From the NCBI GenBank assembly GCA_041557435.1, contig JBFFGP010000001.1, positions 1 to 34,222 on the forward strand: 34,222 nucleotides of DNA, read 5' to 3'. The position numbers were made by a program, and so were the translations under genes. Origin of the DNA: Candidatus Deferrimicrobiaceae bacterium (lineage in GTDB: Bacteria > Desulfobacterota > Deferrimicrobia > Deferrimicrobiales > Deferrimicrobiaceae). The notes below the pieces were generated by a model, which was not told the DNA's origin, made no database searches, and was given only the letters and a program-made list of their open reading frames with translations. Numbering within the stretch: position 1 is the stretch's first letter; the number at the start of each line of letters is the position of its first letter. Below are positions 12,331 through 15,066 of the stretch, piece by piece.

Positions 12331-12399
12331 GGGGGGGGACATTCCTATCTCAAGTTCCATGTTGAGGAGTGTCCCCCCCATTGCAGGAATGTCCCCCCG
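12331..12399. repeat. Palindromic repeat element built from GGGGACAYTCC units (three units: 12331-12345 forward, 12367-12379 reverse, 12387-12399 reverse)
   Basis: Read directly. Unit 1 can pair with unit 2 (about 20-bp imperfect stem, loop GTTCCATG) or with unit 3. It lies between the htrA stop and the clpB ATG. Confidence 0.6.
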
Positions 12400-12420: not shown

Positions 12421-15066
12421 ATGATTTCTCTGGACAAGCTCACGGTGAAAACGCAGGAGGCCCTGCAGGACGCCGTGCGCATCGCCTCGGAGGCGGGGCA
12501 CGCGCAGGTGGAGCCGGAACATCTCTTTGTCGCCCTGCTCCGGCAGGAAGGGGGAGTGGCGGCGGATCTTTTCACACGAGCAGGAGTGCCGGTCCAGCGT
12601 CTTCTGCCCGAGACGAATTCCCTGCTCGGCTCCTTCCCCAAGGTTTCGGGAGCCGTCAGTCGGGGGCTCTCCCCGCGGATGGAGCCCCTGTTTCAACGGG
12701 CGCTCTCGGAGGCGGACGCATTCCGGGACGAGTATCTCTCCGCCGAACACATCCTCCTCGGGATGACTTCCGAGCCGGGGGCCGTTGCGGACCTGCTCCG
12801 CCGGCATGGGGTGACGCGGGAGGGGCTTCTCACGGCTCTCACCTCCATCCGGGGGACGCAGCGGATCACGGATGAAAACCCCGAGGAGAAGTACCAGGCG
12901 CTCGAGAAGTACTGCCGGGACCTGACGGAATTGGCCCGCCGGGAAAAGCTCGATCCCGTCATCGGAAGGGACGACGAGATCCGGAGGGTGATCCAGGTTC
13001 TCTCCCGCCGGACGAAGAACAATCCCGTCCTGATCGGGGACCCGGGCGTGGGGAAGACGGCGATCGCCGAGGGGCTGGCGCAGCGCGTGGTGTCCGGCGA
13101 TATTCCCGAGGGTCTGCGGGACAAGCGGGTTCTCGCCCTGGACATGGGGGCGCTGATCGCCGGGGCGAAGTACCGCGGCGAGTTCGAGGACCGGCTCAAG
13201 GCGGTCCTTACGGAGATCGCCGCCGCGGAGGGGCGGGTGATCCTTTTCATCGACGAACTTCACACGCTTGTCGGGGCCGGGAAAGTGGAGGGGGCGATGG
13301 ACGCCTCCAACATGTTGAAACCCGCCCTTGCCAGGGGGGAACTGCGCTGCGTCGGGGCGACCACCCTGGACGAGTACCGCAAGTACGTGGAGAAGGACGC
13401 TGCGCTGGAGAGGCGGTTTCAGCCCGTTCTTGTGGAGGAGCCGTCGGTCGAGGATACGATTGCGATCCTGCGCGGTCTCAAGGGGAGGTACGAGGTCCAC
13501 CACGGGGTCCGGATCAAGGATTCGGCCCTCATCGCCGCCGCCACCCTGTCGAACCGGTATATCTCCGACAGGTTCCTTCCCGACAAGGCGATCGACCTGG
13601 TGGACGAGGCCGCGTCGAAGCTCAAGATCGAGATCGACTCCGTGCCCACCGAGATCGACGAGGTCGAGAGGAAGATCATCCAGCTGGAGATGGAAAAGCA
13701 GGCCCTGTCGAAGGAGACCGACGCCGCCTCGGGAACGCGCCTTGCCCGCCTCCAGGAAGAGCTGGCGGGGCTGAAGGGAAAGGCGACGGAGTACCGCTCC
13801 CTGTGGGAGGAGGAGAAAAAGTCCATCGGGAGGAGCCGCGAGATCAAAGAGAACATCGAGCGGGCCCTTTCGGAAATGCAGCGGGCCGAGCGGGAAGGAA
13901 ACCTCGGCAGGGCGTCGGAGCTCAAGTTCGGCGTCATCCCGGCACTGCAGCGGGAAGCGGAGGAGCTAAGCGGGGACACTCCCGTTTCACTCACCGGGGA
14001 CATTCCTGATTCATCTCCGGAATACGGGAGAGGAGTGTCTCCGCACAGGGAGCGGCTCCTCAAGGAGGAGGTGGACGAGGAAGACATCGCCCAGATCGTT
14101 TCGCGCTGGACCGGAATCCCGGTATCGAGGCTGGTCGAGGGGGAGATCGAGAAGCTCGTACGGATGGAGGAACGGCTGACCAAACGGGTTGTGGGACAGG
14201 ACGACGCCGTCCGGCTCGTCTCAAACGCCGTCCGCCGCGCCAAGTCGGGCTTGAAAGACCCCCGACGCCCTATCGGGTCTTTCCTGTTCATGGGTCCCAC
14301 CGGTGTTGGGAAAACGGAGCTGGCCCGTGCCCTGGCCCAGTTCCTCTTCGATGACGAGTCGGCGATGGTGCGCCTCGACATGTCCGAATACATGGAGAAG
14401 CACTCCGTGGCGCGGATGATCGGGGCTCCGCCCGGGTACGTGGGGTACGAGGAGGGGGGAGCGCTGACCGAGGCGGTGCGACGGAAGCCGTACACCGTGA
14501 TCCTGTTCGACGAGGTGGAGAAGGCACACCCCGACGTCTTCCACATCCTCCTGCAGATCCTTGAGGACGGGCGCCTGACCGACGGAAAGGGACGGACCGT
14601 CGATTTCCGGAATGCCGTTGTGGTCCTCACCTCGAACATCGGCTCCCACTGGATCCAGGAGCTCTCCGGCAAGGGAGAGGAGGTTGTCCGGAACAAGGTA
14701 ATGGAGGAACTCCGCCGCGAATTCCGTCCCGAGTTCCTGAACCGGCTGGACGAAATCGTCCTGTTCCGTTCCCTCGGGAGGGAGGAGTTGGCAATAATCA
14801 TCCTGATCATGCTTCGGGAGCTAAACGAAAGGCTCGCAGACAGGAAGATCTCGGTGACGCTCACCGATGCTGCCCGGGAGAGGCTCGCGGAGATCGGTTT
14901 CGATCCCACGTACGGGGCAAGGCCGCTGCGCCGCGCCATACAGAAGCATATTCAGGACCTCTTGGCGCTCCATATCCTCAAGGGGGATTTTCGCGAAGGG
15001 GAGTCCATCCTGATAGACGCGGATGGAAACTCCGGGTTTTCCTTCCGGAAATCGGATTCGCAGTGA
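12421..15066 (+). CDS. clpB: Disaggregase ClpB (Hsp104 family) with M-domain
   Basis: Clp_N. D1 GDPGVGKT / FIDELH with pore loop KYRGEFE. Long coiled-coil M-domain. D2 GPTGVGKT / LFDEVEKA with pore loop GYVGYEEGG. 881 aa. Confidence 0.96.
13972..14041. repeat. Second copy of the GGGGACAYTCC palindromic element, in frame inside clpB
   Basis: GGGGACACTCC (13972-13982), GGGGACATTCC (13996-14006), GGAATAC (partial) and GGAGTGTCTCC (14031-14041) are arranged as nested inverted repeats. The stretch encodes [24 protein letters not shown]. Confidence 0.55.

Follow-up and report, generated by a model that had tools for sequence, protein, structure and literature searches.

A REP-like palindromic repeat in frame within clpB of an uncultured Deferrimicrobiaceae lineage, with empty, forward and reversed alleles among its relatives

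Introduction

In-frame palindromic repeats in housekeeping genes are already known from Rickettsia, where the Rickettsia palindromic elements (RPEs; Ogata et al. 2000/2002), of about 100–150 bp, are described as having invaded dozens of genes (PMC10969869). Repetitive extragenic palindromic (REP) sequences are likewise also located inside genes (Di Nocera et al., PMC3733652). A related arrangement is that of the TIRYTs, genes resembling REP-associated tyrosine transposases (RAYTs) that are flanked by inverted repeats with the motif GGGGWSAS and accompanied by moderately abundant families of dispersed repeats (PMC3733652). Segments inside genes can also be inverted, and such intragenic invertons are invertase-driven and heterogeneous within a culture (bioRxiv 10.1101/2023.03.11.532203). 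Here, we describe a palindromic repeat in frame within clpB, the gene of the heat-shock disaggregase ClpB (Hsp100), in Candidatus Deferrimicrobiaceae bacterium. The gene lies in a stretch of 34,222 nucleotides (assembly GCA_041557435.1, contig JBFFGP010000001.1, positions 1 to 34,222 of the forward strand), which we refer to as the window.

We consider it likely that this repeat is a tolerated, selfish element of the kind formed by REPs and their hairpin-forming doublets (REPINs), that it resides in a permissive loop of ClpB, and that its own repeats keep reshuffling it in frame.

Results

A dispersed repeat family with one copy in frame within clpB

The arm of the repeat, GGGGACAYTCC, has 80 exact matches in the source genome (G000), a metagenome-assembled genome (MAG) of 945 kb in 168 contigs that is 59.7% complete and has 63% G+C, against 1 match for the reversed control. 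The window contains 8 matches with at most one mismatch where 2.83 are expected, a number reached in 1 of 100 shuffles. With the genome-wide count, the motifs on which the original prediction was built far exceed chance. The matches in the source genome form 33 palindromic clusters. A typical unit is 45–47 bp long and consists of an 11-bp arm, 23–25 nt and the inverted arm; clusters are arranged as +-, ++-, ++-- or +++---, and nested extra arms are common. At least three interiors recur, namely A (TGATTCATCTCCGGAATACGGGAGA), its variant A' (TGATTCACCTCCGGGATGCGGGCGA) and B (TGGTTTTWTCGTCGAGWAAAACA). Across the same GTDB family, the arm is over-represented in 60 of the 61 genomes searched (2–237 matches against 0–2 for controls). 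Rfam contained no match for the element, and the literature searched held only chance primer matches to the arm sequence. The repeat family is previously undescribed and belongs to an uncultured lineage.

As 32 of the 33 clusters have no coding signal on both sides, the family is predominantly extragenic. The copy in clpB is the only one with a coding signature on both flanks (G+C at the three codon positions, GC1/GC2/GC3, of about 0.68/0.42/0.83) and a single open frame across it. A census for further in-frame copies, suggested by the original prediction and based on spanning open reading frames (ORFs) and the GC1/GC2/GC3 test, found none but this one among the 33 clusters of the source genome and 21 clusters sampled in its relative G064. 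We therefore rejected an invasion of many genes in the manner of the Rickettsia elements.

The copy in clpB is a composite of 75 nt that encodes 25 residues (G518–H542) of an intact 881-aa ORF at 12421–15066 on the + strand. It begins exactly at codon 518, in codon phase 0, and comprises a full unit of 47 bp, preceded by an additional arm with its spacer and followed by the tail GCAC (Table 1). The unit with its tail (13996–14046) is identical at 50 of 51 bases to a dispersed copy at C19:4094–4144. Its A interior recurs unchanged at C19:4094 and as the reverse complement at C7:5031, C14:4063 and C159:1859, and the GCAC tail is also found in the copies at C19:4094, C19:2348 and C101 and in the clpB alleles of relatives. 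A repeat search recovered the 13-nt inverted arms at 13970–13982 and 14032–14044, which are 92% complementary, as well as a 79% direct repeat formed by the 24-nt arm-plus-spacer stretches 13966–13989 and 13990–14013.

The nested inverted motifs that had been reported inside clpB are thus real and in the place assigned to them, but the statement that they occur nowhere else in the window does not hold, as a second cluster of the same family (+--) lies in the spacer between htrA and clpB and has the interior TATCTCAAGTTCCATGTTGA. This spacer copy is flipped in G064 relative to G000 and G051, has another interior in G007 and retains one arm only in G018. A GC-rich hairpin stands in its place in G055, G041 and G012.

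Two further observations concern the family as a whole. In subfamily A units, one arm nearly always contains ACAT and its partner ACAC (e.g., C19:4094–4140, C7:5031–5077, C2:12871–12917). The hairpin is thus left with a T:G mismatch when formed by one strand and with C:A when formed by the other, a difference by which a transposase acting on single strands could tell its target strand. Contig C226 of G058 (L119) ends inside the clpB element, as expected of a short-read assembly broken by a dispersed repeat. As dispersed repeats break contigs, element counts in MAGs are lower bounds.

Table 1. Features of the repeat family in and beside clpB (positions are those of the window).
Feature	Position	Strand	Basis
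Composite in-frame element	13972-14046	+	Motif matches; absent from empty-site orthologs; predicted disordered
Outer left arm (extra), GGGGACACTCC	13972-13982	+	Exact motif match; encodes G-D-T-P
13-nt spacer, CGTTTCACTCACC	13983-13995	+	Sequence; encodes V-S-L-T
Inner left arm, GGGGACATTCC	13996-14006	+	Exact motif match; encodes G-D-I-P
Subfamily A interior, TGATTCATCTCCGGAATACGGGAGA, 25 nt	14007-14031	+	Same interior in dispersed copies
Right arm, GGAGTGTCTCC	14032-14042	-	Inverted arm, differing by a single C-to-T change; encodes G-V-S-P
GCAC tail	14043-14046	+	Trails the right arm in many dispersed copies; unit plus tail = 51 nt/17 codons
Second family cluster (+--)	12335-12396		Arm matches; variable, flipped or absent in relatives

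Empty, forward, reversed and trimmed alleles

The same position of clpB is occupied in several ways in related genomes. The forward A unit with the extra arm is present in G000 (genus g1) and in G062 and G058 (g8), and the forward A unit without the extra arm, which differs by a 24-nt deletion between direct arms, in G007, G060, G051 and G064 (g8). A subfamily B unit with the same left boundary occupies the site in G006 (g7). The site is empty in G018, G041, G055 and G046 (g8) and in all 18 other family and outgroup genomes examined, so close relatives without the insert, whose existence the original prediction had left as a question, do exist alongside empty, more distant family members.

ClpB sequences from metagenomes (P numbers) extend this series. 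Reversed A alleles, which are exactly the other-strand reading of the composite in the source genome, were found in P0017, P0020, P0021, P0163 and P0165, and subfamily B in the other orientation in P0029. Truncated elements occur in P0007, P0008, P0011, P0014 and P0073. Short linkers with only GDTP..SP occur in P0050 and P0055–57, which group with G051-type filled alleles in the protein tree. The outer arm and spacer are kept in G062, G058, P0009 and P0134 and were lost by the 24-nt deletion in G007, G060 and P0007; in the reversed alleles P0017, P0021 and P0165, the reverse complement of the spacer (GGTGA.GGAAAC.) trails the flipped unit.

Reversed and forward alleles with the same flanks form the pairs P0021/P0014, P0017/P0009 and P0165/P0013. 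At the DNA level, the left flank gagctaagc is common to forward and reversed alleles, and the right flank is gcacatcccccaagcc... in both P0014 and P0021 and gcccccgc... in both P0009 and P0017. As the flanks of forward and reversed alleles are identical, these states point to inversion or replacement in place rather than to independent landings. The contigs of P0017 (reversed) and P0049 (empty), which come from sibling samples, are about 99.6% identical over 5.6 kb. Likewise, P0053 (empty), P0013 (forward) and P0165 (reversed) are 99.4–99.5% identical in protein outside the linker and 97–99.5% identical in DNA. The allelic variation is therefore very recent in places.

When the linker was masked, a maximum-likelihood tree of clpB did not unite the filled alleles. 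As filled alleles are non-monophyletic in this tree and the state varies even between near-identical strains, a single ancient insertion followed by losses is insufficient to explain the series, which calls for allelic recombination or for repeated events. One filled allele in a G018-like background has the L-S codons typical of filled alleles of other lineages, which suggests import by short-patch recombination. The G018-type empty allele itself resembles the never-filled linkers of genus g5. The G018-type empty site, GC-GGGGAAGACCTCC-GCC (L149/L150, L158/L159; homologous to 13968–14050), has ends that mimic the arm (GGGGA...CTCC); it may either imitate a target or be what is left of a collapsed element.

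The frame is probably kept by the dimensions and reading phase of the element

Every clpB variant that we found keeps the frame. A flip does not change the length, an arm with its spacer measures 24 nt, and a unit with GCAC measures 51 nt. Only phase 0 of the arm leaves A units, and most B units, open and hydrophilic in both orientations; whichever way they are read, the arms then encode GD(T/I)P and G(V/M)SP. Phase 2 contains a TGA stop, and phase 1 is hydrophobic (e.g., GTFLIHL).

The insert lies in a variable loop at the base of the M-domain

The host protein matches ClpBs in the PDB over its full length (E = 4.5e-81) and has the Clp_N domain, two AAA+ modules and the coiled-coil M-domain (Pfam), with motifs intact. 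Invariant Walker and other columns are common to it and 71 relatives. The insert follows the helix that bears Y503 and directly precedes R-L-L...V-x-x-x-D-I-A...RWTGIP (RLLKEEV...SRWTGIP), near the end of the M-domain, as had been proposed. Alignment to solved structures places the extra residues between residues 508 and 515 of Thermus thermophilus ClpB (1qvr), which, counted along the structure alignment, corresponds to about residues 515–524 of E. coli ClpB; the numbering coincides with that of E. coli up to 517. The insert is therefore part of the variable loop between the final helix of the M-domain and the second nucleotide-binding domain (NBD2), after residue 517 and some 15 residues beyond Y503. 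With 881 aa, the protein exceeds its insert-free relatives (860–862 aa) by a net of about 20 residues, more than the roughly 15 estimated in the original prediction.

In an AlphaFold2 model based on 72 homologues, which we used for local secondary structure only given a mean predicted local distance difference test (pLDDT) of 65.5 and a predicted template modelling score of 0.37, the M-domain helices span residues 410–430, 435–491 and 495–517 with pLDDT of about 80, and helix resumes at 553. Residues 519–543 have pLDDT below 50 and no secondary structure. Structure prediction of the M-domain, which the original prediction had recommended, thus returned an insert that is predicted to be a disordered loop.

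The length of this loop is not fixed in other bacteria. The distance from Y503 to WTGIP is mostly 46–50 residues in 31 ClpBs of other phyla and 65 here; it reaches 58–61 in some Edaphobacter (Acidobacteria) and Chlamydiota, whose loop is 10–13 residues above the usual length. As these distances differ, loop length varies in other phyla as well.

Position 503 itself (13927–13929) is Phe in the protein studied here and Tyr in its relatives and in E. coli. Y503 is a motif-2 residue, and Y503D de-represses E. coli ClpB (PMC4023160). The change to Phe is conservative and probably harmless.

The gene is constrained and the insert appears nearly neutral

Apart from the insert, purifying selection on clpB is strong: the ratio of nonsynonymous to synonymous divergence (dN/dS) over the C-terminal 320 codons is 0.07–0.15 in 15 pairwise comparisons. 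This purifying selection on the rest of the gene suggests that ClpB with the insert stays functional. In the 17-codon unit of the insert, where very few sites are available, dN/dS ranges from 0.3 to 2.2, consistent with almost neutral evolution. Most likely, then, the inserted peptide is a neutral passenger.

A candidate mobilising enzyme in relatives

In 38 of the 70 family genomes, a single weak match to the Y1 transposase family PF01797 (about 40 bits) falls in an open frame of about 300 aa. The representative in G007 (307 aa) scores 69.8 bits against NF047646, "REP-associated tyrosine transposase", which is under the curated cut-off of 80 bits, and 36.6 bits against Y1_Tnp. This RAYT-like gene is single-copy, occupies a conserved locus and encodes a long C-terminal extension (L130–L137: G018, G007, G062, G051, G060, G064, G041 and G006). 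The median number of arm matches is 37 in genomes that carry the gene and 10 in those that lack it (Mann-Whitney p = 2e-4), although the test ignores the kinship of the genomes and therefore overstates the significance.

No dispersed arm with at most one mismatch was found within 1.5 kb of the eight RAYT-like genes, so that no classic REPtron was seen at that threshold. A looser look showed that all eight are flanked by related inverted repeats, such as GGGGACGTTCT, AGGGACGTTCC, GGGGACGTTCTTAAAC or AACAGGGACGTTCC, which agree with the dispersed arm at 9 of 11 bases. The RAYT/TIRYT-type Y1 transposase of the relatives is thus a candidate for the enzyme that mobilises the family.

A gene-carrying version of the element was also sought in the source genome, where arm pairs 120–3000 nt apart proved to be chance one-mismatch pairs around housekeeping genes. 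Inverted arms are present, but simple +- copies have no flanking direct repeats by eye and no gene-bearing version was found in the source genome, so the family does not fit the definition of a miniature inverted-repeat transposable element.

Discussion

A tolerated element reshuffled by its own repeats

The allelic series can be accounted for by the following steps. One composite copy came to lie in the loop between the M-domain and NBD2. It would have been tolerated there owing to its phase-0 arms, which leave both orientations open and yield a peptide rich in Gly, Asp, Pro and Ser (GD(T/I)P...G(V/M)SP), and owing to the loop itself, which is probably solvent-exposed and varies in length across bacteria. 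With phase 0 open both ways in an exposed, length-variable loop, the element would be translated as a disordered loop of 25 residues. Subsequently, the repeats of the element itself would drive further change in frame: the segment bounded by the inverted arms occurs in both orientations within identical flanks, and 24-nt arm-plus-spacer stretches have been deleted between direct arms, next to other partial deletions. Empty, forward and reversed alleles circulate in near-identical strains, probably via short-patch recombination. The mobilisation may be due to a Y1 transposase of the RAYT/TIRYT type, or to arm-primed recombination and template switching between copies.

Several observations weigh against this account. 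clpB is the only intragenic site found for the family, yet it has been occupied repeatedly, which is unlike purely random landing. No Y1 transposase (PF01797) was found in the source genome, which is 60% complete, and the repeats that flank the transposase gene in relatives resemble the dispersed arms but differ from them in sequence. Target-site duplications are not apparent, and filled and empty alleles differ by replacement rather than by clean insertion: 92 nt in the linker of P0017 replaces 35 nt in that of P0049. The near-neutrality of the insert is measured on 17 codons only, and the synonymous divergence (dS) of the insert is below that of the gene, which could mean constraint at the DNA or RNA level.

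Alternative explanations

Alternatively, clpB could contain an intragenic invertible or contingency locus, in which frequent, possibly enzyme-driven flips and indels between the arms recode the loop within a population and are selected for diversity. Both orientations do lie between identical flanks, ClpBs with 99.4–99.5% identity include empty, forward and reversed ones, and the intergenic htrA–clpB copy is flipped in G064 too. Furthermore, the sole intragenic copy of the family persists across species, and protein recoding by intragenic invertons has precedent (bioRxiv 10.1101/2023.03.11.532203). However, the arms are just 11 bp long, we identified no invertase, only one state is present in any assembled contig, and rare events combined with recombination between strains give the same states. 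As dN/dS of the insert is near 1, there is also no sign of positive selection. We regard a locus of this kind as quite unlikely. The more general proposal that the clpB linker is a self-rearranging, always-in-frame cassette, in which variability of the loop peptide is kept by selection instead of arising from neutral churn, seems to us unlikely. If it were true, the selected variability might tune regulation of the disaggregase or evade something that targets ClpB, and selected or programmed variability would be an unusual way to diversify a core chaperone.

The inserted loop could have been exapted to alter the dynamics of the M-domain or of the hinge between M-domain and NBD2, and so to tune the repression of ClpB and its DnaK-dependent activation. 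The insert adjoins the regulatory M-domain (PMC4023160) and has been kept in at least eight species-level genomes, and every allele has conserved the ends G-D-x-P and G-x-S-P. These ends, however, are simply the DNA arms. A flip or a subfamily B unit replaces the interior peptide wholesale and the gene is not lost, empty alleles are common in sister strains, and the loop is predicted to be disordered. DnaK binds the tip of motif 2 of the M-domain (PMC4023160), whereas the insert occupies the other, basal end of that helix, where the M-domain begins to join NBD2. Exaptation of this kind is very unlikely in our view, and an effect of the loop on DnaK docking, raised by the original prediction, finds no support in the basal position and predicted disorder of the insert. 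The proposal that a palindromic element had landed in clpB in frame or had been exapted by it therefore survives in its first half, as the insert is a copy of a dispersed family in an intact ORF; its second half does not, as the insert appears near-neutral and disordered and is flipped, trimmed or absent in near-identical ClpBs.

The low dS of the insert compared with the gene fits a role at the level of RNA or DNA, in which a stable hairpin within the coding sequence would influence translation, replication or the decay of the mRNA, as intergenic REPs do. In agreement with this, the 91 nt of RNA around the insert fold with -40.1 kcal/mol (z = -3.67), and the arm changes in G007, G060 and G000 are C-to-T on the sense strand, which preserves G-U pairs. 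Nevertheless, good folding is expected of any recent copy of a palindrome, the pairing decays in G062 and G058, Rfam has no match, empty alleles manage without a hairpin, and the numbers are small. We consider such a role highly improbable.

Finally, that the insert is an assembly artefact or chance similarity, such as a repeat-induced chimera in the bin, has negligible probability even though the MAG is fragmented (168 contigs, 60% complete) and the G058 contig breaks exactly at the element, as clpB lies on both flanks with its frame intact, many species have orthologous inserts, and the identical linker in five other proteins from independently assembled contigs (P0002–P0006) in our judgement already refutes it.

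Comparison with known systems

The RPEs are the closest functional analogue. Like the RPEs as presented in PMC10969869, the family consists of a palindromic repeat that occurs between genes and, in frame, in a housekeeping gene, at a site compatible with the protein fold; translation is here read from the sequence. Unlike the RPEs described there, its units measure 45–75 bp instead of about 100–150 bp, clpB alone is invaded instead of dozens of genes, and the host belongs to another, free-living lineage. The insert in clpB is also flipped and swapped in place, which sets it apart from the RPEs in that description.

As a class of element, the repeat is closest to the REP/REPIN and TIRtron repeats. 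It shares with REPs and REPINs (PMC3116915) that it is a short imperfect palindrome with a high copy number, found in inverted pairs and nested clusters and mostly extragenic. As in REP/RAYT systems, relatives carry a single-copy RAYT-like Y1 transposase. Unlike in REPs, the GTAG/CGTC end tag is absent: the ends read CACC-GGGGACA...TGTCCCC-GCAC, and CGTC is confined to the subfamily B loop. The defining arrangement of a REPtron is present in part, as the repeats that flank the transposase gene are related to the dispersed arm (9 of 11 bases) rather than identical to it. The resemblance to TIRtrons and TIRYTs lies in the arm GGGGACAC, which fits GGGGWSAS, in the inverted repeats other than classic REPs that flank the Y1 gene of relatives, and in dispersed repeats that form dimers and clusters. 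Unlike in TIRtrons, the gene-flanking repeats (GGGGACGT) deviate from the motif at position 7, and the TIRYT likeness is one of arrangement. With intragenic invertons, the locus has in common a segment inside a gene that lies between inverted repeats and is found in both orientations, each of which encodes a different in-frame peptide; unlike in those invertons, the two orientations are seen only between strains, contigs or samples, and the repeats measure 11 bp and have no known invertase.

In comparison with Rickettsia, this locus adds a new repeat family with a candidate mobilising enzyme of the RAYT/TIRYT type, and a series of empty, forward, reversed, swapped and trimmed alleles of one loop, some of them in backgrounds that are 99.4–99.6% identical. 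The gain, inversion and loss of REP-like elements could be traced in such a series, and it provides natural variants at the junction of the ClpB M-domain and NBD2 that could be used to test the tolerance of this hinge.

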